A stretch of DNA of 64,000 nt from Chlamydiales bacterium (GCA_965261025.1 OZ253438.1:725808-789807), one strand, 5' to 3'; positions 5,677-16,563 are shown, counted from the first letter of the stretch. Translations and numbers: made by a program. The notes: a model not told the origin generated them from the letters alone.

Positions 5677-6417
5677 ATGGAATACGTAAAACTCATACAG
5701 GATACGCTTTATTGGATACAGCAGGAAAAAAAGACTTTCCTCTATTCACAAAATCTTCTTTTCTCTCCCCAAAAACCGTTAAGTTCTTTTCGTTCTACTG
5801 CGAAACAACCCCTTGCGGTAGAAGGGTCTTTGACAAAAGAAAACTTGCTCGAGAAAAAGGAAAAAGACAAAATCCTCTCTATTCCAGAAAAAAAAATCCT
5901 AAAAGAGCAAAGGGTTTTTACCAAAGATCTCTCCCTCTCCTTTTCCAAAATCAGAACTTTTTACAAAACTTACTACCCTTCTATGAAGCTTTTAGAAAAT
6001 CCCCTGGAAGATGGTTTTAGCAAAAAAATAGCCAAAGCCTACATCTATAAAAATCAGGCTAGTGAAATAACCCTTTTAGCCTACTGTGTGAAAGAAAAAG
6101 ATCTCCTTTTTCTAAAAGCACTTGCCAAGGCCATCTCCCTCTATTTCTTCCCTTGCAAAGTCTTAGAAAATACAAAAGAGATGGATTGGCTATCTTTTCT
6201 TACAACACCCCATCTTAAAGGTATCATTGCTACTGAATACGCCCTTTGGGAAAAGGGATCTCCCCAGTCTTTTGTAAAGGAAATTCCCAGTCAATCAGAA
6301 TGGTTCCTCCACAATACTCCTCTCTTTTTTCTAGATAAGCTTTCGAGTTACTATAAAAATCCTTACAAGAAAAAAACTCTGTGGAATGAGTTATGCCAAA
6401 AACTGTCAAACCTATAG
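5677..6417 (+). CDS. Hypothetical protein
   Basis: 246-aa ORF in the same orientation as ftsY and priA. It overlaps the priA start by 25 nt. No motif recognised. Confidence 0.55.
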   Translation: MEYVKLIQDTLYWIQQEKKTFLYSQNLLFSPQKPLSSFRSTAKQPLAVEGSLTKENLLEKKEKDKILSIPEKKILKEQRVFTKDLSLSFSKIRTFYKTYYPSMKLLENPLEDGFSKKIAKAYIYKNQASEITLLAYCVKEKDLLFLKALAKAISLYFFPCKVLENTKEMDWLSFLTTPHLKGIIATEYALWEKGSPQSFVKEIPSQSEWFLHNTPLFFLDKLSSYYKNPYKKKTLWNELCQKLSNL

Positions 6418-8636
6418 AACCCCTTTTTTGTTCTGTTGTTCTGGATGAAAGATTTCCTAAACCTCTAGAATATGAGATCCCTTTCTCTTTGCATTGTAAA
6501 GCCTCTATAGGCTCTAGAGTCGAGGTTCCCTTAAAGGGAGGAAAAAAAAAAGGGTATATTGTCTCTTTTCATAAGAAAAAAAACTTCCCTTCGGTAAGAC
6601 CTATCTTACAAGTGCTTTCTCAAGAACTTTCCTTTCCTAAAGAGCTTTTTCCCCTGGCTGAGTGGATCTCCTCTTATTACGGATGCTCTCTATCCAAGGC
6701 ATTCCACTCTATGATTCCCAAAAGTGTGAAGGAAGAAATTCGTCCCAAAAAACGTCTTTTTATAACACTAAAATCCCCTAGAAAAGAGATAGTAAAAATC
6801 CTCCCCTCTTTTCGAGAAAAAAAACCCCAAAGAGCTTTGGTTTTAGATTTTCTTTTAAAACAAAAAAAGAGTGCCTATCTGCAGGAAATCCTACAAGCTA
6901 CTAAAATATCTAAAGCACCCATTGAAGCTCTTGTTCGAGAGGGGATTCTCCACTCCCAGGCTTTACTCTCTTCTGAGGAAGATTTTTTTTCTGACGTAGA
7001 ATTTTTCCCTACCGAAAAAAAGCCGTTAAATGAGCAGCAGAAAAAAGCCTTAGAATCGGTGCAAAAACAACTACATACTTTTGCTGTTTTTCTTCTATAC
7101 GGCATAACAGGAAGTGGAAAGACTGAAGTATATTTACAACTCATCCAAACTGTTTTACAAAAAAAAAGAAGCGTTCTTATTCTAGTTCCAGAAGTGGCCC
7201 TTACCTCTCAGCTCATAGAAAATCTACGTTCCAGGCTTCAAAAGCCTATTCATGTGTTCCATCATAAAAAAAGCCAAGGAGAAAAATACCAAAGCTGGCA
7301 AAAAATTCAACAAGAAGAAGGAGAAATTCTTATAGGAGCTCGATCTGCTGTTTTTGCCCCTTTGAAAAACTTAGGGCTTATCGTAGTAGATGAAGAACAT
7401 GAGTCTTCGTATAAACAAACTGAAGAGAGTCCCACATATCACGCAAGAGATATCGCCGTCATGAGAGGTAAATGGCAAAATATCCCCGTTCTCTTGGGAA
7501 GTGCCACTCCTTCTTTAGAAAGCTTTTATAATACCCAAACAGGAAAATACCAACTTCTTACTCTCCTTAAAAGGGCAAATAACCAGCCCCTTCCTAAGGT
7601 AAAAATTGTCTCACAAAAAAAAGAATGGGAAAAACAGGGAAGCTTTACCCATTTTTCCCAAGAGCTCCTACAAGGCATACAAAAGAGGGTTTCTCTAGGG
7701 GAGCAAACCCTTCTTTTTTTGAACAAAAGAGGATTTTACTCTTGTAAAATTTGTAAGGGCTGCTTAAAGCCCTACAACTGTCCTCACTGCTCTTTGTCTT
7801 TAACTTTTCATAAAAAAGAAAATACCTTGCTTTGTCACCTTTGCGGGTATAGAGCTTCTCTTTTACAAAAATGTCCTTCTTGTAAGACTTTCCAAGCAGG
7901 AGATTTCAAAGGCTTTGGAACCCAGCATGTAGAAGCTAGTTTACAAGCCCTACTGCCTGATATTCGCGTGATTCGAATGGATCGAGATACAACACAGAAA
8001 AAAGAGTCCTCTGAAAAGATCTTTCAAGAGTTTCGAGCAGGAAAAGCTGACGTGTTAGTTGGAACGCAAATGATTGCTAAAGGACTTCATTTTCCCAAAG
8101 TAACCATGGTAGGCATTTTAAACCCTGATTTTTTATTCCATATCCCGGATTTTCGAAGTTCTGAAATGCTTTTTCAACTCCTTACTCAAGTTTCAGGTAG
8201 AGCTGGAAGGGAGGAAGTAGCAGGAGAGGTAATGATTCAGACTTTTTTCCCAAACCACCCCCTATTTGCTTTAGCAGCAAAAGGAGACTTCCTCTCTTTT
8301 TATGAAGGAGAGATGAAACAAAGAAAGCTATTTTCTTATCCTCCTTATCAAAGGATAATCCGCCTTATCTTTTCAGGAGTGGAAGAAAGCAAGGTGGCAA
8401 ACAAATCCGCAACTTTCTTTCAAAAACTAAAAGAAGAACTTAGCCCAGAGGTAAAAATTTTACCTCCTCTTCCCTGCGGCCATGCAAAGATTAAAGATAA
8501 ATTCCGATTTCATATTTCTGTTTTTACAAAAAACGTAACAAAAACGATGGCCTCTATTCTTCCCTTAAAAGAAAAATACACCAGTTCAAGTCTTTTCATT
8601 TTTCTCGATGTGGACCCCTCTCAGCTATATTTTTAA
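6393..8636 (+). CDS. priA: Primosomal protein N' (replication restart helicase PriA)
   Basis: Walker A GITGSGKTEVY, DEEH box, and Cys-rich zinc region (CKGC..CPHC..CHLC..CPSC). Confidence 0.9.
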   Translation: MPKTVKPIEPLFCSVVLDERFPKPLEYEIPFSLHCKASIGSRVEVPLKGGKKKGYIVSFHKKKNFPSVRPILQVLSQELSFPKELFPLAEWISSYYGCSLSKAFHSMIPKSVKEEIRPKKRLFITLKSPRKEIVKILPSFREKKPQRALVLDFLLKQKKSAYLQEILQATKISKAPIEALVREGILHSQALLSSEEDFFSDVEFFPTEKKPLNEQQKKALESVQKQLHTFAVFLLYGITGSGKTEVYLQLIQTVLQKKRSVLILVPEVALTSQLIENLRSRLQKPIHVFHHKKSQGEKYQSWQKIQQEEGEILIGARSAVFAPLKNLGLIVVDEEHESSYKQTEESPTYHARDIAVMRGKWQNIPVLLGSATPSLESFYNTQTGKYQLLTLLKRANNQPLPKVKIVSQKKEWEKQGSFTHFSQELLQGIQKRVSLGEQTLLFLNKRGFYSCKICKGCLKPYNCPHCSLSLTFHKKENTLLCHLCGYRASLLQKCPSCKTFQAGDFKGFGTQHVEASLQALLPDIRVIRMDRDTTQKKESSEKIFQEFRAGKADVLVGTQMIAKGLHFPKVTMVGILNPDFLFHIPDFRSSEMLFQLLTQVSGRAGREEVAGEVMIQTFFPNHPLFALAAKGDFLSFYEGEMKQRKLFSYPPYQRIIRLIFSGVEESKVANKSATFFQKLKEELSPEVKILPPLPCGHAKIKDKFRFHISVFTKNVTKTMASILPLKEKYTSSSLFIFLDVDPSQLYF

Positions 8637-8717
8637 AACGCAAAATCAAAACGAAAAATTGCTAAGAATTTTTCTATCGTTTAAAGTCTCCCCAAACTTT
8701 TAAAAAAGGAGTAATAA

Positions 8718-9152
8718 ATGTCCCCCGTAGAAAATAGCGCCCATTATACTGTTGGTTTTGAATTATACGACGAAGAATTTACTTCAAAGAGACTTGAAGA
8801 GGAAGAGAAGCAGGAAAGTCAACTTGCTACTCGGGATGGACTACTGAAAAAAATATCATCAGGACCTGCTCATATCATAACGGTTGTGACAGACGAATTC
8901 GATCCTACCTGCACCTGCGTAAATGCAGTTTCCGCTCACTATTTACTCCAACAGGGGCTGCTTTTCGTTTCAGCTACCCCTTCTAAGAACAAGATAACGA
9001 TAACAAGACACTACGACCTTTATTCGAGTGCAGAAGACACAACCAAAATGACAAACCTTAACAACTTAACAAAGCGGTTTCCTTTTGCTAAACAAGTCTC
9101 CTCCCGAGAAGTGGTTATCGACCGAGTGGACTCTGCTGCTAACCTGAAGTAG
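8718..9152 (+). CDS. Hypothetical protein
   Basis: 144-aa ORF preceded by the strong SD aaggag (8706-8711). No motif recognised. Confidence 0.55.
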   Translation: MSPVENSAHYTVGFELYDEEFTSKRLEEEEKQESQLATRDGLLKKISSGPAHIITVVTDEFDPTCTCVNAVSAHYLLQQGLLFVSATPSKNKITITRHYDLYSSAEDTTKMTNLNNLTKRFPFAKQVSSREVVIDRVDSAANLK

Positions 9153-9177
9153 TCCCTTTCAATTTCCTACACGCTTA

Positions 9178-9202
9178 GGACCTAGACAATCCTGCTAGGT
9201 CC
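9178..9202. terminator. Hairpin between convergent genes (candidate bidirectional terminator)
   Basis: ggacctag-N9-ctaggtcc gives a perfect 8-bp stem. It spans the stop codon of the PhyH gene and lies 26 nt after the stop of the 8718..9152 ORF. There is no strong T-run. Confidence 0.35.
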
Positions 9203-10109
9203 CTTTCGATCTTCCCCTGGTCGGAGTGGCAAAATGAAAAGCTGGATTATCGGAATCTTCCCGTTTTTTTTGGTAATAAGTGGCCCTGTGCTCTCCTTCT
9301 GCTCCTCGATTTAAGGTAAAGAGCATAGCTCTTCTAGGCGTAGAACTGGCGTTTGGTTCTGAGTAGTGAGGGACAAAAGAAGTTATCAAGATCACGTCCC
9401 CAGGCTGGCTTTCTAAAGGAATCCACTGTATCTGATCTGAAAATCTTTTTTCGATAGAGCCATGAGCTTTACCCCCTTTCACATAGGGCAAAATTGCTTT
9501 ACCTTGTCTTAACTTATCAGACTCCACTTCTGGATTTTCCATAAAAGTACTTTTCCAATCCTGAGCTACTTGCAGGCATCCGTTTTCCACCGTTGCCTCA
9601 TCAATTGCAACCATGGCTGTTATATGGACTTTTGGTCCAAAAAAATCATAGGCTGGAAAATCCTGGTGAGGCAAAAAGGCTCCCCCTCCTGGCCATTTGA
9701 AATTTAACTTATCTTTAAATGGTATGTAAGATTCTCCCATCAAATTAGCAATAAAGGGAAGTAAGGTTCTTTCAATCAAGGAACACAGCCCTGGATAGCA
9801 GCTAAGCATATCTTCTGATCTACAAATCTGTTTTTGATTCTCTACCTCTGGAACAACGATTAAAGAACGAGGCATCTGATAGGCCAAGGCTTGCGGCGTA
9901 GTATCTAATCTCTCAGCCAGTTCTAACAACTGCTTTGATTCTTTGTGAATTTCTTCAGAGTATTCTCTCAAAAGCCTTACCTGCTCTTTTGAATAAAAAT
10001 TTCGGACTACCAGGTAGCCGTACTTATTAAAAAATATTTTCTGTTCCTCAATTTCTGAAGCCCAAGTATGAGCTAATCCCAGAAGTAAAATAACCCATCT
10101 ATACCTCAT
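9195..10109 (-). CDS. PhyH-family Fe(II)/2-oxoglutarate dioxygenase with an N-terminal signal-like sequence
   Basis: HxD (PHQDF), distal His (VPHYSEPN) and Arg (RRAM), in a PhyH-like context (YGYLVVRNFYSKEQV). The N-terminus MRYRWVILLLGLAHTWA-SE resembles a cleavable signal peptide. Confidence 0.8.
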   Translation of the reverse strand: MRYRWVILLLGLAHTWASEIEEQKIFFNKYGYLVVRNFYSKEQVRLLREYSEEIHKESKQLLELAERLDTTPQALAYQMPRSLIVVPEVENQKQICRSEDMLSCYPGLCSLIERTLLPFIANLMGESYIPFKDKLNFKWPGGGAFLPHQDFPAYDFFGPKVHITAMVAIDEATVENGCLQVAQDWKSTFMENPEVESDKLRQGKAILPYVKGGKAHGSIEKRFSDQIQWIPLESQPGDVILITSFVPHYSEPNASSTPRRAMLFTLNRGAEGEHRATYYQKKREDSDNPAFHFATPTRGRSKGT

Positions 10110-10582
10110 TGAAATTCTCCTTCTTTATGTCTTTCGATAATTCTATTGATGATTTCTGTAGTAGAAATTCCTTTTGTATAAGGAACTGTCCGGAAGATAC
10201 CCGCTTTCAAAGCAGCTCCATACTGATCTTCAATAAGAGCCTGATCAAAATCGTCTCCATGAATTACATAGTCAATTTCCCACTCTTTTATCATTTCTTT
10301 TGTCAGCCTAATCGGGGGGGCTTCAATCACTTCATCTACTAAAGAACAGGCTCTAATTGTTCTTACCCTTTCTTCCAAGGTAAGCACAGGAATCCTTTTG
10401 TATTCTCCTACACTCTCATCTGCAAGCACTCCTACTATCAAGTAATCCCCAAAAGATTTAGCTTGTTTTAAAAACTCAATATGTCCTGCATGAAATAAAT
10501 CTCCTACGATATCCACATAAACCCGCGTCTTGGCTTGAAGCATGCTACAAGCTGCAAGAAAACAAAAAAACCATCGAACCAT
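10106..10582 (-). CDS. Cytidylyltransferase of the CCT/ECT/TagD family (HxGH nucleotidyltransferase)
   Basis: GDLFHAGH (HxGH), YTKGISTTEIINRI (the RTEGISTS-like motif) and IDYVIHGDD. It matches my recollection of the eukaryotic CCT catalytic core along its length. The N-terminus MVRWFFCFLAACSMLQA is hydrophobic. The stop overlaps the PhyH start (ATGA). Confidence 0.85.
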   Translation of the reverse strand: MVRWFFCFLAACSMLQAKTRVYVDIVGDLFHAGHIEFLKQAKSFGDYLIVGVLADESVGEYKRIPVLTLEERVRTIRACSLVDEVIEAPPIRLTKEMIKEWEIDYVIHGDDFDQALIEDQYGAALKAGIFRTVPYTKGISTTEIINRIIERHKEGEFQ

Positions 10583-10673
10583 AAAAAAACCTCTCGCTAA
10601 ATTATCAAGAAATAGAAAAGCCTACCCTTTTTAGGAACAATATAGCATCAGATGCCGCACAGAACTGTTTTAT

Positions 10674-10682
10674 CCCCCCCCC
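10674..10682. repeat. C9 (G9 on the minus strand) homopolymer tract in an intergenic region
   Basis: Read directly as tat-ccccccccc-ttcc. It lies 92-100 nt upstream of the cytidylyltransferase start codon on the minus strand. Confidence 0.9.
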
Positions 10683-11089
10683 TTCCTAAAAGCCCCTATA
10701 TCGTCATCCGATCAAAAAGACTCATCCTATCCACTACAACAAAAAAGTAAGGGTAAGCAAATAAAGATAAATTAATCCCACTATGCGCATAATTCCCCCT
10801 CAAACCAATTCACTAAAACCAAGCTGCAAGGTTCTCGGCAAGGGATTTTATACCCTTCCCAAGATTTAGGTTGCAATCGCAAAAGTTTTCTCTTGGGAAA
10901 ATTTATGACAAAAGCGGGAAAGACCAGGACTTCCACCCTAAAAGATCACATATTTTGTGATCTTGCCTAGACATCAAAACCTTCTACCATCCCCAATAGA
11001 CAGAAGTATAGGAGAAGGGCCTCTAGCTTGTCCCCCTATTTCCTTTGACCAAAAACCTCTCTTTACGGTATAAGGGTTCTGCTTTCTGT

Positions 11090-11164
11090 GGCGATTGTAG
11101 CTCAGTTGGTTAGAGCGCTGGATTGTGGTTCCGGAGGTCGCGGGTTCGAGCCCCGTCAATCGCC
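11090..11164 (+). tRNA. tRNA-His (anticodon GTG) with a genomically encoded G-1
   Basis: Manual cloverleaf. The 8-bp acceptor GGCGATTG/CAATCGCC includes the G-1:C73 pair. The D-arm is GCTC/GAGC, the anticodon arm is CTGGA-TTGTGGT-TCCGG, and the T-arm is GCGGG-TTCGAGC-CCCGT. CCA is not encoded. Confidence 0.9.
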
Positions 11165-11187
11165 CTTTTATTTAGGTAAGGTGCGCT

Positions 11188-11925
11188 TTGTCTTATTGGG
11201 AGGCGGTCCTATTGGGGGCCCTGCAAGGAATTACCGAATTTTTCCCTGTAAGCTCCTCAGCACACCTGAAGATTTTGCGGCTATTTTTTCACATTGATAC
11301 AAAAACCCCCCTATTCTTTGATCTTGTATGTCACTTAGGAAGCCTTTTTTCCCTACTATGGTTTTTTAAAAAGGAGCTTTTCTCCCTTCTATTCTCTCCT
11401 AGAAGCTGGCCTCCTTATTTTTTGGCTTTACTTCCGTTAATTCCTGCCTATCTTTTTTTCAAGCAGTATCTCCCCTTATTTTCTCCTTGGTTTGGTTTTT
11501 TTCTCATGGTAACGGGGACTTTGCTTTTTTTAGCTTCTTATAGCAAAGAGGCTCCTTCGCAAAAGAGATACCGAGATGTGTTATATATTGGGCTAATGCA
11601 ATCGATGGCTTTATTTCCGGGTCTTTCCAGATCTGGAAGCACTATAGCAGCAGCTTGTTTTCGAGGATGGGAAATGAAAAAGGCGGTGGAATTTTCGTTT
11701 CTTTTGGCTATACCTACCGTTTTTGGGGGAATTATTTTAGAAAGCATCCAGGCCTTAAATGAAAACCCCTCTCTTTCTTTTACCCATTACGCCTTAGGCT
11801 TTTTTTTCTCTTTTTTTCTCGGCCTTTTTGCGGTACAACAGATTAAGAGACTCTCCAAAAAAAGGCTTTTGGGATTTGCTCTATATTGTTTAAGTATGGG
11901 ACTCTTTAGTCTGGTTTATTGGTGA
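11188..11925 (+). CDS. uppP: Undecaprenyl-diphosphate phosphatase
   Basis: N-terminus GALQGITEFFPVSSSAHL and the PGLSRSGSTI motif. TTG start. Confidence 0.9.
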   Translation: MSYWEAVLLGALQGITEFFPVSSSAHLKILRLFFHIDTKTPLFFDLVCHLGSLFSLLWFFKKELFSLLFSPRSWPPYFLALLPLIPAYLFFKQYLPLFSPWFGFFLMVTGTLLFLASYSKEAPSQKRYRDVLYIGLMQSMALFPGLSRSGSTIAAACFRGWEMKKAVEFSFLLAIPTVFGGIILESIQALNENPSLSFTHYALGFFFSFFLGLFAVQQIKRLSKKRLLGFALYCLSMGLFSLVYW

Positions 11926-11926
11926 G

Positions 11927-14254
11927 ATGAAAAAAAAGAAGAAAAAACGTGGTAAAAAAGGACTTCACCCTGAAGCTAAGGCTCTTTTCTATACAGGGGG
12001 AGCCATTTTTTTGTTTCTATCTCTTTTGTCTTTTGTCTCTGCACACCCTGAGAAAAACTGGCTAGGGGTATCGGGTCACTATAGCGCTTTAGTTTTTCTA
12101 TATTTTTTGGGACTCCCTAGTTTTTTTGTTCCCCTTTTCTTTTTGAGGGTAGCAAAATTTTATTTCTCCTTTACGAAGGGAGCCCTCTTAAAAAAAGAGG
12201 GGCTTCTTTTTCTATGGTGTCTTCTCTCTTTGTCTTTTTTATTAAACCAAATTGCGGAGCATTTTCCTGAAAAGGTCTCCCATTTCCAGAATAAAATTTA
12301 TACAGAAAGCTTTGTCACTTTCTCTGAAGAACCCAAAATGAAAATCCGATACAATTTGGGAGGTCTTCCTACCTACTATTGCTACACAGACTTTCCTTTT
12401 TTCTCTTTACAAAGAATGCTCAGCGATGTGGGTTGCCTCTTACTAGGTTTAATTTCCACTCTTGCTAGTTTTTCCTTTTTAACCAAGATCCCTATTGTAA
12501 AACCCTGGAAAACCCTCTGGGGCTATTTGAATAAACCAAGAACTTCCTCCCCTCGTCAAAAAAACCCCTTTTCTTCTTCTAAAAACCTTTTCTTTTACCT
12601 AAGAAGGTTTTGTAAAAAAGTTTTCCTAAGAAGAGAAAAAAAGCCTCCTATTTCTTTAAAGAAAGAACCCCTTTTATCTAAAAAAGCTTTTCCCTTTGAA
12701 GAGAAAAAGGAGGAAATAAATCCCCTTCTCGATACAGTAAAAATCCACACCGTCAAGCCCTTTACTCCTTCTACGATAGATACGAAACAGAAAACTTTAG
12801 GAAAATATGATATTCCCTCTCCCGAATTTCTCTCTGACCCCAAACCTATTGACCATCCTACCTTGAAAAAAGATCTCACAAGGCAGGCCTCTACTTTAGA
12901 AGAAACTTTAAAAAGCTTTGGAATTGAAGCCAAAGTAGTAGAAATTAATTGTGGGCCTTCTATTACTTCTTTTGAAGTACAACCTCCTATTGGAGTAAAA
13001 GTACAAAAGATCAAAGCATTAGAAAATGATATTGCTTTGAATATGGAAGCAAAATCCATTCGGATCTTAGCCCCTATTCCTGGAAAAGCGGTAGTAGGGG
13101 TAGAAGTACCTGCAGCCCATCCTCAGGAAGTAAGTTTCAAAGAGATGCTCCTTCATTACTTGCAGAAATCAAAAAAAATGCAAATTCCCATCCTTTTAGG
13201 AAAAACCGTAAATGGAGACTCGGTTATCTCAGATCTTGCTAAAATGCCACATTGCTTAATAGCAGGCGCTACAGGGTCGGGAAAATCTGTCTGTATCAAC
13301 ACTATTATCATGTCTCTTCTAATGACAGCATCTCCAGACCAGCTCAAATTCTTAATGATAGATCCGAAAAAAGTAGAGCTTACCCAATATTCTAATCTTC
13401 CCCATATGATAGCGCCTGTTATTTCAGAAGCCCACGGGGCTTACGCCGCCTTGCAATGGCTCGTAAGAGAAATGCAAAAACGATACGATATTTTAAAACA
13501 CCTAGGACTTCGTAACATCACAGCTTTTAACTCTCGTAAAATTAAAGAAGACGTAGAAAGCTCTTATTCCACAGAAATTCCTGAAAAGCTTCCTCTAATC
13601 GTAGCTATCATTGACGAATTTGCTGATTTGATGATGGTCTCCAGCTCTGATCTAGAAACTCCTATTGCTAGAATTGCGCAAATGGCAAGGGCTGTAGGGA
13701 TCCATCTCATTTTAGCTACGCAAAGACCTTCTAGAGAAGTAATTACCGGGATTATTAAGGCAAATTTTCCAACCCGCATTGCTTTCAAGGTATCTTCGAG
13801 AATCAATTCTCAGATCATTTTAGATGAGGTAGGAGCTGAAAGTCTTTTAGGAAATGGAGACCTCCTTCTTTTACCCCCAGGAAGCTCTAATTTGGTAAGG
13901 GCACAAGGGGCCTATATTAGTGATGAAGATATTAATAAAGTGATCGACTGGATTTCTTCTAAAGCTCCTCCTAACTACTTAATTTCTTCCTTCGATAAAA
14001 TGGCAAAAGAAGAAAAGGACTCTACCGATTTTACAGGAAAAGATTCCTTGTATAACAAAGCACTAGAAGTAGTAGTCAGTTCAAAGAACGCTTCTACTAC
14101 TTTTCTGCAAAGAAAACTCAAAATCGGCTACGCAAGAGCGGCTTCTTTGATGGACGAATTAGAAGAAAATGGAATCATAAGTGCTGCTGAAGGAAGTAGG
14201 CCAAGGCAAATCCTTACCTCTTCAGAGGTATTATACGAGAAAGATCCTTCCTAA
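11927..14254 (+). CDS. ftsK: DNA translocase FtsK
   Basis: N-terminal TM segments, Walker A GATGSGKSV, the IIDEFADLMM Walker B region and a C-terminal gamma (winged-helix) domain, LQRKLKIGYARAASLMDELEENGI. Confidence 0.95.
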   Translation: MKKKKKKRGKKGLHPEAKALFYTGGAIFLFLSLLSFVSAHPEKNWLGVSGHYSALVFLYFLGLPSFFVPLFFLRVAKFYFSFTKGALLKKEGLLFLWCLLSLSFLLNQIAEHFPEKVSHFQNKIYTESFVTFSEEPKMKIRYNLGGLPTYYCYTDFPFFSLQRMLSDVGCLLLGLISTLASFSFLTKIPIVKPWKTLWGYLNKPRTSSPRQKNPFSSSKNLFFYLRRFCKKVFLRREKKPPISLKKEPLLSKKAFPFEEKKEEINPLLDTVKIHTVKPFTPSTIDTKQKTLGKYDIPSPEFLSDPKPIDHPTLKKDLTRQASTLEETLKSFGIEAKVVEINCGPSITSFEVQPPIGVKVQKIKALENDIALNMEAKSIRILAPIPGKAVVGVEVPAAHPQEVSFKEMLLHYLQKSKKMQIPILLGKTVNGDSVISDLAKMPHCLIAGATGSGKSVCINTIIMSLLMTASPDQLKFLMIDPKKVELTQYSNLPHMIAPVISEAHGAYAALQWLVREMQKRYDILKHLGLRNITAFNSRKIKEDVESSYSTEIPEKLPLIVAIIDEFADLMMVSSSDLETPIARIAQMARAVGIHLILATQRPSREVITGIIKANFPTRIAFKVSSRINSQIILDEVGAESLLGNGDLLLLPPGSSNLVRAQGAYISDEDINKVIDWISSKAPPNYLISSFDKMAKEEKDSTDFTGKDSLYNKALEVVVSSKNASTTFLQRKLKIGYARAASLMDELEENGIISAAEGSRPRQILTSSEVLYEKDPS

Positions 14255-14529
14255 TAGGAAACAGTTCACTGATAGCTGCTTCAATTCCTTGCCTACAAAG
14301 TAGCAACAAGCCAGTAGGAAAAAAGGAGTGTTAACTCCTGCTTATACCAACCAAATGTGTAGGAGCAGCGTAAAATGAGACGCTCTTACCAAGAGTTATT
14401 ATGATACCCTTTCCAAAGAAGAATGGGGAGAAAAAAGCCCGAAGAGTTAGCATCCTGCAACAACTTGATAAAAAATTTTGACTTTAAGAGAAGCAAGTAG
14501 AAAACGTATCAATTAAGGTCAGTCAGTCC

Positions 14530-14552
14530 AGCTACTAAGCGCAGTAGCTTTT
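14530..14552 (+). terminator. Hairpin plus short T-run at the end of the ftsK downstream spacer
   Basis: agctact-aagcgc-agtagct (7-bp stem) followed by ttt. It abuts the stop codon of the convergent 14551..15225 ORF. Confidence 0.3.
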
Positions 14553-15225
14553 AAGTGGTGGCCCCTTGAGACAAGCATTTTATCTCTAAAACACAATCCT
14601 TAAACGCCGCATTTTGTATCTTTACCTTCTGCAGACGCAAGCTCACAAAAGAGTAGATTTTTAAAAGAAAAGTCCCAACAAATAGCCCTGATAAAAAGTA
14701 CATTGGCATAGCAGTAATCCTGGATCTTCTCCCCTCTTCGGTAAAAAGTAAACTAGGTCGTATAACGGCCAAAAAGGCAAGAAAAAGGAGATTGCATGCC
14801 ATACTAACCTTTGCTATAGCTTTAGAACGGTCACCGATTTTCTGATACTCCAAGCAATTTTTCACAGTGGAAGAGATCTTTTGGGAAGAACTACGATCTA
14901 GCTTACTCCCAAAAAAAACTCGGGCGGTTTGTTCAGTCAAAGCACAAACATTCCGGTTTGTGAAAAAATCCTCAGGTAAACTCCCTAACGGGTATCCAAA
15001 AAACTGGGAAAATTGCCCAAATTTATCGCACAATTCTTGTGTTTGAGGGATATCATCAAGTGTTTCACGGATATTAGAAGAAGCGCTTTTTTTAACCTTT
15101 TCAGAGATAGAGATCAGCTCTCCTAGGGAAACTTGTGAAGGATCCCTAGCACAAAGGTTTCCTAGTTCTAGAGCAAAAAAATACATCTGCTCTTTTGAGC
15201 TAACTGGATAGCAAGAAGAACTCAT
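14551..15225 (-). CDS. Hypothetical membrane protein with a bilobed hydrophobic domain (Inc-like candidate)
   Basis: 224-aa ORF. Residues about 140-161 and 172-195 (VSMACNLLFLAFLAVIRPSLLF-TEEGRRSRITA-MPMYFLSGLFVGTFLLKIYSFV) form two TM-length stretches separated by a short loop. No Sec signal. Confidence 0.55.
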   Translation of the reverse strand: MSSSCYPVSSKEQMYFFALELGNLCARDPSQVSLGELISISEKVKKSASSNIRETLDDIPQTQELCDKFGQFSQFFGYPLGSLPEDFFTNRNVCALTEQTARVFFGSKLDRSSSQKISSTVKNCLEYQKIGDRSKAIAKVSMACNLLFLAFLAVIRPSLLFTEEGRRSRITAMPMYFLSGLFVGTFLLKIYSFVSLRLQKVKIQNAAFKDCVLEIKCLSQGATT

Positions 15226-15388
15226 ACCCCACTCCCTTCTCTGTTAAAGGGGCAATTTTAGCAAAATACTTACCCAAAAACCAGAGAATCTTTTATAGGA
15301 ACTTTTTTTCTTCATAATCTCCTGAGTTATTCATAGTTATATTAAAAAAATATTTATAAATACATCGAGAATCAAAAGAGAAAAATAG

Positions 15389-16153
15389 TTATAAAGTAAT
15401 TACTTCAGAATGTTTCTCTTGATAAGCAATAAGGAGCTTTCCAGAAAGAGCGGGATTACTTTCTAATACAACCTGTAAAGCAAGCTCTGGCTCATTACAT
15501 TCTTGGGAAAGGTGAGAAAGATAAACCGCTTGTAGATTCTTCTTTTGTAACCGACTGAGAAATAGAGCACATTGTTCATTCGAAAGGTGTCCTATATTAC
15601 TCAAAACCCTTCTCTTATAAACCAGAGGTCTTTTTGCTTCTTGTACCTTCCTTACATCATGATTTGCTTCTATTACCAAAAGGCTTAAGGACGAAAGCTT
15701 TGTTTCTAAAAAAGAAGAGGAAGTTCCGAGATCTGTGCATATTCCTATCTTTTTTCCCTCTACTTGTAATACCACTCCTACAGGATCTAGTGTGTCATGC
15801 TGGACGGAAAAAGGAAACACGGTAATATCGCGAAACAAAAACTCCTCATGAGTAGAAAAAATCTTAAGCTTCGGTTTTATATAAAGCGCGCTATAAATTC
15901 CTTTTGCTGTTTCTTTATTGGTAAAAACAGGAACAGCCGTTTTCCCCAAAACTTTTAATCCCTGAATGTGATCCTTATGTTCGTGGGTAATTAAAATAGC
16001 ATCAATTTCAGAAAGGGAAATCCCCAAAAAAGAAAGTCTAGCCTGCAAGCTCTTTGCAGAAAGACCACAATCCACTAAAAGGGTAGTTTCTTTTGTTTTA
16101 ACAAGGTAAGCATTCCCTTTGGATCCTGACGCTAAGGGACAAAATAAAACCAC
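15389..16153 (-). CDS. Metallo-beta-lactamase-fold hydrolase (YycJ/VicX-like)
   Basis: ILITHEHKDH (HxHxDH) motif, an N-terminus of the LASGSKGNAYLV type, and a late HLS motif. GTG start. Confidence 0.8.
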   Translation of the reverse strand: MVLFCPLASGSKGNAYLVKTKETTLLVDCGLSAKSLQARLSFLGISLSEIDAILITHEHKDHIQGLKVLGKTAVPVFTNKETAKGIYSALYIKPKLKIFSTHEEFLFRDITVFPFSVQHDTLDPVGVVLQVEGKKIGICTDLGTSSSFLETKLSSLSLLVIEANHDVRKVQEAKRPLVYKRRVLSNIGHLSNEQCALFLSRLQKKNLQAVYLSHLSQECNEPELALQVVLESNPALSGKLLIAYQEKHSEVITL

Positions 16154-16563
16154 ACATTCTCTCTATATTTCTCTTCATTTTAAAAAAAACCTTGAGAAAA
16201 GGAAATGGTTTTTTCTACTTTTTGCCTCCTCAAAAATAGCCTTCAGGGCTTTTATCATGCCTCTCTTTGCTTCCCCTGAATCGAATTGACTATACTTTCT
16301 TACTGAAAACGCCTAAAAGTAAAACGAAAGATTCCTATCAACCCGCTTTTTTCTTAGTTTATAAAAAATTTTTCTGTTTTTTAATAAAAAATTACAGTCT
16401 TTTTATATAAAAAAATATTTTACATAAACTATTTTTCGAAAAATTTTCATAGAGAAACATTTGAAAAATGGAGATTTTTAATTAAAAAAACAGTTTTTTT
16501 GAAAAATTATTTGACAAATAGTTTTGTTTAAAAAAAAATGAGGTTATAGCGGGAGTTTTTATC

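Follow-up and report, generated by a model that had tools for sequence, protein, structure and literature searches.

Activation of 2-aminoethylphosphonate (AEP) by a cytidylyltransferase (CT), together with transfer by LicD-type enzymes, is established, and CTs of the PF01467 family are fused to 23.6% of the Ppm enzymes (PMC6697681). Ppm clusters which also contain a 2-oxoglutarate (2OG) oxygenase and CTs have been predicted to make 1-hydroxy-AEP lipids (PMC8942020). Both kinds of enzyme, and the logic of combining activation with hydroxylation, are known already. The present analysis concerns a 64,000-nt stretch of the genome of a Chlamydiales bacterium (GCA_965261025.1 OZ253438.1:725808-789807), in which two overlapping genes code for a single-domain CT and for a PhyH-family Fe(II)/2OG dioxygenase. 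The whole stretch is referred to as the window, and coordinates are counted from its first letter.

The reading preferred here, which is held tentatively, as plausible rather than probable, is that the two proteins form an exported module, which would hydroxylate an AEP-like head group at the alpha position and activate it with CMP, for decoration of the envelope or of glycans. An earlier note, made from the sequence only, had guessed at a phosphonate of the AEP type among the possible substrates, and this is the guess best backed by homology and by the gene context of relatives. It had also supposed that such a pathway was not described for Chlamydiae; no paper in the literature searched ties these bacteria to phosphonates or to this enzyme pair.

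The two enzymes, their relatives and their distribution

The CT gene (10106..10582) encodes 158 aa and the dioxygenase gene (9195..10109) 304 aa; both, with all their features given below, are located on the minus strand. The stop codon of the former (TGA) and the start codon of the latter (ATG) overlap in the sequence ATGA (10106..10109), as previously noted, and an AAGGAG ribosome-binding site is found 7 nt ahead of the dioxygenase ATG. The 4-nt overlap implies translational coupling, and the pair is arranged like an operon of two genes coupled in this way. The same overlap is kept in close relatives (L001, L054 and L060).

The assignment of the second protein to the PhyH family was borne out by its score of 78.5 bits against PF05721, whose gathering cut-off is 22. 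The iron-binding facial triad and the basic residue for 2OG are in place: His148 and Asp150, contained within the HQD motif (9660..9668), and the distal His248 with Arg259 and Arg260, in the 2OG-binding region (9330..9368), are unchanged in 32 sequences. The AF2 model has a mean pLDDT of 90.7, and Foldseek matched it to proline hydroxylase H11, PHYHD1, EctD and GriE with a probability of 1.00 and TM values of about 0.56-0.59; by sequence and Foldseek comparison, no solved structure was nearer than these PhyH-type small-molecule hydroxylases. Several homologues are labelled 2-aminoethylphosphonate dioxygenase by JGI and NCBI, and the names now in use for these proteins range from 'ectoine hydroxylase-related' to '2-aminoethylphosphonate dioxygenase'.

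The weightiest evidence on the lineage of the dioxygenase, which is PhnY/PhnY*-like, is provided by the gene context of its relatives. All 11 gammaproteobacterial relatives (36-40% identity), from Neptunomonas, Oceanospirillaceae, Osedax symbionts and Steroidobacter, adjoin or are fused to a PhnZ-type HD-domain phosphonate oxygenase (TIGR03276, 202 bits), and phosphonoacetaldehyde hydrolase (PhnX, 338 bits, above cut-off) is often located nearby, a context which is that of the oxidative pathway of AEP degradation. In Oceanospirillaceae (L035 at 654-2099, L036; L028-L034, L037 and L042) the PhnZ-type and PhnY-type sequences are either adjacent or combined in one fused protein of 472-481 aa.

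A different context was found in L026, where a homologue with 48% identity, devoid of a signal segment, directly follows genes for phosphonopyruvate decarboxylase (Ppd, 503 bits) and AEP aminotransferase (AEPT, 439 bits). The same cluster holds a fusion of phosphoenolpyruvate (PEP) mutase and nucleotidyltransferase (336 bits) and a second nucleotidyltransferase; the Ppm, Ppd and AEPT scores all lie above the curated cut-offs, and the cluster is one of AEP biosynthesis and tailoring. It is carried by a contig from a metagenome-assembled genome labelled Woesearchaeota (6101-16432), on which the full AEP cluster is followed by the dioxygenase homologue and by two P-loop-kinase-like genes.

Chlamydial, gammaproteobacterial and L026 proteins have in common the motifs KDK-N-K-PGGGAF-PHQD, VVPE...CR-E and, at the C-terminus, NPxFHxATPT. 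In a neighbour-joining tree the PhnZ-linked proteobacterial clade is split from the chlamydial sequences and L026 with 100% bootstrap, and the dioxygenase from the window joins those of L001 and L004 with 78% bootstrap. Shared motifs, context of the relatives and tree together place the dioxygenase in the lineage of phosphonate alpha-hydroxylases, and not as an orthologue of the catabolic PhnY.

The enzymes might alternatively serve catabolism or scavenging, the PhnY-type dioxygenase taking the first step in degrading host AEP oxidatively as a source of phosphorus or nitrogen and the CT either recycling nucleotide-linked head groups or being a mere neighbour. The closest context-defined relatives beyond the phylum are indeed PhnY proteins of PhnY-PhnZ catabolic clusters, and amoebae, ciliates and marine invertebrates, the hosts of environmental chlamydiae, are rich in AEP and 1-hydroxy-AEP head groups. 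This explanation is nevertheless very unlikely: no PhnZ-type partner was found in the window or in the flank of any chlamydial locus, nor did the window or the surroundings of some 30 chlamydial loci contain a PbfA-like or PhnX gene; hydroxylation by itself frees no phosphate; the partner conserved with the dioxygenase is an enzyme of activation, not of C-P cleavage, and its translational coupling argues for a joint function.

The CT belongs to the PF01467 superfamily, with 78.9 bits against a gathering cut-off of 21. The length of 158 aa and the motifs listed by the earlier note were all verified, namely HAGH, a CTP-binding motif of the HxGH type (residues 31-34, 10481..10492), KGISTT, of the RTxGISTT type (residues 137-142, 10157..10174), and IDYVIHGDD. 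The HxGH and GISTT motifs are unchanged across 27 aligned homologues, H31, G33, H34, G138 and S140 being invariant and T141 nearly so.

Comparison with proteins of solved structure placed the CT closest to the eukaryotic ethanolamine-phosphate cytidylyltransferase (ECT) and choline-phosphate cytidylyltransferase (CCT). The whole-protein comparison with human ECT (3elb) gave an E value of 2.7e-46, with 91.8 bits for the N-domain and 66.6 bits for the C-domain; rat CCT scored about 89 bits, Plasmodium CCT 81, the CyTase domain of Fom1 58.9, TagD 45.6 and HldC 39.7. The AF2 model (mean pLDDT 79.7) was ranked by Foldseek in the same order, with ECT, CCT and Fom1 ahead of TagD and HldC. Among the NCBIfam models, RfaE domain II (TIGR02199) was the top match and TagD (TIGR01518) the second, both far below their cut-offs (70.9 bits versus 181.5 and 54.6 bits versus 165.4, respectively). 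Identification of the CT as TagD or HldC was rejected on the basis of these scores and of PDB and Foldseek matches weaker than those with ECT and CCT.

The CT had been described as eukaryote-type, resembling the catalytic core of CCT and ECT. The resemblance was confirmed for the characterised enzymes, since sequence and Foldseek rankings agree on ECT and CCT as the nearest ones; a eukaryotic type in the stricter sense does not hold, the protein having one domain and falling outside the clades formed by the two ECT domains. ECT (Pcyt2) is a two-domain enzyme, and eukaryote-type matches of 300-550 aa contain two stretches matched by the CT, versus a single domain in the 158-aa protein.

An exhaustive search among 1.84 billion cluster representatives, with hits re-scored per domain by a chlamydial profile, divided the homologues into three tiers. 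The chlamydial CTs score 287-310 bits; next come single-domain proteins of 143-215 aa and LicD-CT fusions, with 154-258 bits, many of which begin with a signal- or anchor-like segment and four of which contain a Pfam LicD domain; domains of two-domain ECT-like proteins, one from a marine eukaryote transcriptome, reach at most 127 bits, the N-domain of human ECT scoring 108. Accordingly ranked by sequence, the closest actual relatives are uncharacterised, predicted single-domain CTs, many of them signal-bearing or LicD-fused. The LicD-CT fusions (P0359, P0346, P0389 and P0383), some of which have an N-terminal signal or anchor, are among the closest non-chlamydial relatives, and in P0244, which bears a signal, two such CT domains are arranged in tandem. 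A neighbour-joining tree of the domains located the chlamydial CTs inside the single-domain and LicD-fused clade and outside ECT-N and ECT-C, deep bootstrap values being weak. The neighbourhood of a single-domain CT with 60% identity (L061) was uninformative.

Both proteins are widespread in environmental Chlamydiota and have hundreds of homologues, nearly all of them either lacking a name or bearing the label Chlamydiae, Chlamydiales, Rhabdochlamydiaceae, Simkaniaceae or Parachlamydiales, with identities of 60-77% in the case of the CT and 46-69% in that of the dioxygenase. When one genome of each GTDB species was scanned, 49 loci were obtained, none of them from the genus Chlamydia. CT and dioxygenase adjoin each other in 11 of the 24 loci with enough upstream sequence, and two arrangements, co-directional and divergent, were observed. 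Synteny with priA, uppP or ftsK is not conserved in the 49 loci, where neighbours, identified by eye and by Pfam, are mostly housekeeping genes of various kinds (ValS, TrpS, Ser/Thr kinase, LpxD, Skp, BamA, RecR, cytochrome oxidase).

Genes related to glycans or head groups recur sporadically around the pair or the CT. A LicD-family gene (69 bits) is located directly 5' of the pair in L016, and its orthologue (54% identity) is found 5 kb away in L060; an APH-type kinase gene stands next to the dioxygenase in L056. In L052 (8001-11364) a CT with 67% identity is followed by genes for a GT9 glycosyltransferase, for a small P-loop kinase and for a fusion of IspD and short-chain dehydrogenase, whose architecture is similar to that of CDP-ribitol synthases; from its gene content, this region looks like a glycan-decoration cluster without dioxygenase. 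Two other loci show signal-bearing, eukaryote-like proteins encoded beside the dioxygenase: a GT90 protein (133.6 bits) following it in L012 (10897-11955) and a DUF2608 protein (188.5 bits) adjoining it in L018 (9110-9880).

Signal-like N-termini and a proposed pathway

Both proteins begin with a hydrophobic segment resembling a signal peptide, as had been noticed before: MVRWFFCFLAACSMLQA in the CT (10532..10582), followed by KTRVYVD, which corresponds to the first beta strand, and MRYRWVILLLGLAHTWA in the dioxygenase (10059..10109). The translations were verified and the segments are conserved among homologues. A home-made heuristic, evaluating n-, h- and c-regions and using neighbouring ORFs as a control, classified as signal-like 105 of 119 homologues of the CT and 98 of 118 of the dioxygenase, versus 103 of 499 control ORFs (21%); in the two families together, the proportion is about 85% of over 230 homologues. 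In both, a short basic start is followed by a hydrophobic core of 9-15 residues and by a small-x-small site, often with acidic residues beyond it, and cleavage-type sites such as LQA|ET, TWA|SE and FA|EE are seen in the alignments. All 27 aligned CT homologues have the hydrophobic N-terminus, with a site of the LQA|(E/Q/K)T type. A lipoprotein reading of the CT N-terminus, suggested by LAAC at residues 10-13, was discarded, as the cysteine is not conserved and the LQA|x site is.

In the public annotation of this genome the CT starts at Met14 and is 145 aa long (P0001). No Shine-Dalgarno-like site precedes the annotated start; one such site, GAGAGG (10590..10595), is found 7 nt 5' of the long start. 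The 158-aa form is favoured because of this ribosome-binding site and because homologues conserve both length and hydrophobic N-terminus. The start at Met14 removes the conserved signal-like segment, and the start codon in the public record, set too short, would be in need of correction.

The segment is missing in the gammaproteobacterial PhnZ-linked relatives and in L026. Its pattern, and its absence from relatives found in a cytoplasmic context, argue for an N-in/C-out topology and for export, and not for an anchor facing the cytoplasm; both enzymes are, as far as such a heuristic can tell, apparently exported. These data bear on the possibility that both are membrane-anchored enzymes of the cytoplasm, with uncleaved anchors, the CT contributing CDP-ethanolamine, CDP-glycerol or a nucleotide sugar to the usual synthesis of lipids or lipopolysaccharide (LPS) and the dioxygenase tailoring an unrelated metabolite. 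Supply of CTP and 2OG in the cytoplasm is the default assumption, the curated models closest to the CT are RfaE domain II and TagD, and the CT of L052 precedes a gene of the GT9 heptosyltransferase family. Such an arrangement is, however, distinctly unlikely in view of the distance of those two models from their cut-offs, of HldC and TagD structural matches far weaker than those of ECT and CCT, of the sequence of basic start, hydrophobic core, AxA-like site and acidic residues, which indicates the N-in/C-out orientation, and of the lack of the segment in cytoplasmic relatives of the dioxygenase.

Chlamydiae obtain CTP from the host by import (PMC5113988) and take up host 2OG through the outer-membrane porin PorB (PMC8092193). 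We infer that both compounds cross the periplasm toward inner-membrane importers, which would make extracytoplasmic chemistry feasible. In the exported module proposed here, Sec-type signal peptides on both enzymes would bring the chemistry to the periplasm or beyond, with CTP and 2OG drawn from the host. The dioxygenase would use Fe(II), O2 and 2OG to hydroxylate C1 of AEP or of a close analogue, yielding 1-hydroxy-AEP; the CT would join CTP to the phosphonate, or to a phospho-alcohol, to form CMP-(hydroxy)AEP or a donor of the CDP-ethanolamine type; and a LicD-type or other phosphotransferase would move the donor onto an envelope glycan or lipid. The proposal is built upon the two enzyme families with intact motifs, the conserved signal-like N-termini, the recurrence in the phylum, the phosphonate contexts of relatives and the presence of LicD fusions and neighbours; the AEP-like substrate, the sequence of the reactions, the acceptor, the location of the enzymes and the origin of AEP, from the host or through a ppm gene at another place in the genome, are the parts that it adds. 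AEP-rich hosts could supply the substrate.

Several observations weigh against this proposal. The best curated family of the dioxygenase, the PhnY* methylphosphonate hydroxylase (NF052437), was matched with only 135.1 bits, the equivalog cut-off being 500; the model is narrow, because even the Neptunomonas proteins linked to PhnZ reach no more than 124-128 bits with it. Given this score and the separate clade, the substrate of the dioxygenase may have changed. Similarly, the substrate of the CT is not readable from the sequence, since its pocket is neither CCT-like nor ECT-like at the positions aligned by HMMER: Trp151 and Tyr173 of rat CCT, the cation-pi residues for choline, correspond to Ile91, mostly Leu in homologues, and to the invariant Phe112, and an invariant Arg92 directly follows residue 91. 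Export is predicted by a home-made heuristic. We know of no characterised precedent for a periplasmic pathway dependent on CTP and 2OG. The two genes are non-adjacent in about half of the evaluable loci and several long contigs seem to carry just one of them, so that their coupling is not obligatory. Lastly, searches for Ppm, Ppd, AEP transaminase, PhnZ, PhnX and LicD turned up no such gene in the window or in the flanking sequence of most chlamydial loci, PntC and APH are likewise missing from the window, and tblastn searches with Ppm, Ppd and AEPT of L026 gave no match in the window or in the chlamydial loci, so that by this test neither contains a Pnt cluster of the known kind.

The same export signals may be read in another way. 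The enzymes could be directed at the host, being exported by Sec and then delivered by type II secretion or by vesicles into the inclusion lumen or the host cytosol, where they would act on pools of phosphoethanolamine or AEP and rewire a Kennedy-type pathway. This idea, to which a small chance is given here, would account for the predicted signal peptides conserved on both proteins, for eukaryotic ECT and CCT as nearest characterised relatives of the CT and for the absence of any transferase or acceptor gene consistently linked with the pair; CTP, 2OG, iron and O2 are plentiful in the host cytosol, and the GT90 and DUF2608 proteins adjoining the dioxygenase in some loci carry signals and are eukaryote-like. 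It is opposed by the glycan-related neighbours of some loci, LicD and GT9 among them, which point to bacterial envelope chemistry, and by the position of the CT, not nested in the eukaryotic ECT clades.

A more far-reaching form of the proposed module, which seems rather unlikely, is a wholly extracytoplasmic head-group pathway dependent on CTP and 2OG, operating in periplasm, inclusion or host cytosol and fed by host CTP, 2OG and AEP, whose CMP-(1-hydroxy)AEP-type donor would serve either the chlamydial envelope or the rewiring of host phosphonolipids. If true, it would be the first extracytoplasmic pathway of nucleotide activation and the first phosphonate biochemistry in Chlamydiota, and the wider clade of ECT-like CTs with signals and LicD fusions would be a sign that other intracellular organisms follow the same strategy.

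As to the module itself, its conservation, its apparent export and its pairing of a phosphonate-type alpha-hydroxylase with an ECT-like activating enzyme suggest that chlamydiae either use a host-like head group to decorate their envelope or have these enzymes work on the head-group pools of the host, and that nucleotide-dependent chemistry may be possible outside the cytoplasm where a host supplies the co-substrates.

Origin of the pair and other features of the locus

Three ORFs, here found to encode 144, 304 and 158 aa, are enclosed, as previously described, between priA (6393-8636, plus strand) and the gene for tRNA-His (GTG anticodon, 11091..11165, plus strand), the latter being a neighbour with no demonstrated part in the module. 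The earlier note had taken the tRNA flank and the spacer as signs of a horizontally acquired islet. An islet inserted recently at tRNA-His would fit the adjacent tRNA gene and the long spacer, the priA/tRNA-His synteny, unique to this locus among those bearing the pair, and the atypical composition of the 144-aa ORF (ORF144). The hypothesis of a tRNA-His-associated genomic island was rejected, and a recent acquisition of this kind is highly improbable: G+C content, G+C content at third codon positions (GC3) and codon usage of CT and dioxygenase are those of the backbone (|z| at most 1.4 versus 48 window genes), no G+C step occurs at their region, no integrase was found among neighbouring ORFs and no att-like direct repeat of tRNA-His within 8400-11400. 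The nearest relatives of both proteins are all chlamydial, and the dioxygenase, grouped with L001 and L004, falls inside the chlamydial-type clade. Native composition, lack of island marks and chlamydial relatives suggest an old chlamydial module relocating within genomes rather than a recent import; the pair, from its sequence relationships, looks like such a module. The comparison of loci, envisaged as a check for a conserved interval between priA and tRNA-His, revealed the pair in many different housekeeping neighbourhoods.

The three ORFs do not form one unit. ORF144 (8718..9152, plus strand) is convergent to the operon, from whose end it is separated by 42 nt, and lies outside the module. 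It is an ORFan: among 5.8 billion clusters the sole member of its family is itself, and no Pfam or NCBIfam family was matched. It departs from the usual codon usage (GC3 z +2.0, codon log-likelihood z -2.4) and bears no relation to the convergent ORF of 139 aa which follows the pair in the closest relative. For lack of a homologue, of a family and of such a relationship, it was dismissed as a third member of the unit; it is either a lineage-specific gene or no real gene. A strong ribosome-binding site precedes it.

The spacer 5' of the operon (10583..11090, strandless), in which the promoter is presumed to be located, measures 508 nt, one more than previously counted, and is ORF-free only if short ORFs are disregarded. 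It matches no Rfam family, and its promoter-like matches, compared with shuffled controls, and its terminator-like matches were not in excess over chance. It contains a C9 tract (10674-10682, reading G9 on the operon's coding strand), 92 nt 5' of the CT start, which is the longest G/C homopolymer of the window and could be a site of phase variation by slipped-strand mispairing in the promoter region of the operon.

Two more ORFs of the window are worth recording. A 246-aa ORF without a Pfam family (5677-6417) is located between ftsY and priA, overlapping the start of the latter by 25 nt, and a 216-aa ORF (21212-21862) has the most atypical codon usage of the window (log-likelihood z -3.5, G+C z +2.4).

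Comparison with known systems

The CT shares with TagD, the glycerol-3-phosphate CT, and with HldC/RfaE domain II, the heptose-1-phosphate adenylyltransferase, the nucleotidyltransferase superfamily and a similar size, but falls far below their curated cut-offs and has much weaker PDB matches with them than with ECT and CCT. The CT domain of Fom1, which acts on 2-hydroxyethylphosphonate in the fosfomycin pathway (PDB 5x3d), is similar in being a phosphonate-activating PF01467 enzyme with a related fold (E 8.6e-11, rmsd 2.4 A); it is, however, only about 30% identical, fused to a PEP mutase and cytoplasmic, and ECT and CCT are nearer to the chlamydial protein. With eukaryotic ECT/Pcyt2 and CCT, the best solved matches by sequence and by fold, the CT has in common HxGH, RTxGISTT and 36-40% identity over the catalytic domain. 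It differs from ECT by its single domain, by its position outside the ECT-N and ECT-C clades and by its predicted signal peptide; it differs from CCT by the replacement of the choline-binding Trp with Leu or Ile, beside an invariant Arg, and by the lack of any C-terminal extension and hence of the amphipathic membrane-binding domain.

The dioxygenase is related to PhnY/PhnY*, namely the AEP dioxygenase of the PhnY-PhnZ pathway and the methylphosphonate hydroxylase of Gimesia maris, by the PhyH-type fold, by the arrangement HxD...H...R, by the long shared motifs and by its best curated match. Unlike these, it has no PhnZ partner, carries a predicted signal peptide and is paired with a CT, and its identity to PhnZ-linked proteins, from which its clade is fully separated in the tree (100% bootstrap), does not exceed 36-40%.

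Pnt clusters, in which Ppm, Ppd and AEPT are combined with PntC or a PF01467 CT and with LicD (PMC6697681, PMC8942020), provide a parallel to the pair as a whole, since in them an AEP head group is both activated by a cytidylyl group and alpha-hydroxylated; the 2OG oxygenase of the 'Burkholderiales_CDP-OH' group is predicted to give 1-hydroxy-AEP lipids (PMC8942020). One member of the dioxygenase clade, L026, is located in such a cluster, and LicD neighbours and fusions occur in the CT family. The chlamydial pair has no Ppm, Ppd or AEPT nearby, both its enzymes are predicted to be exported and its CT is an ECT-like PF01467 protein, whereas the characterised PntC is LicC-like (PF12804). It departs from precedent, then, in the absence of a neighbouring gene for AEP synthesis, in the ECT-like type of its CT and in the signal peptides predicted on both proteins. 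What is new is a version of this chemistry that is Ppm-less, of ECT type, predicted to be exported and kept across a phylum of intracellular bacteria.

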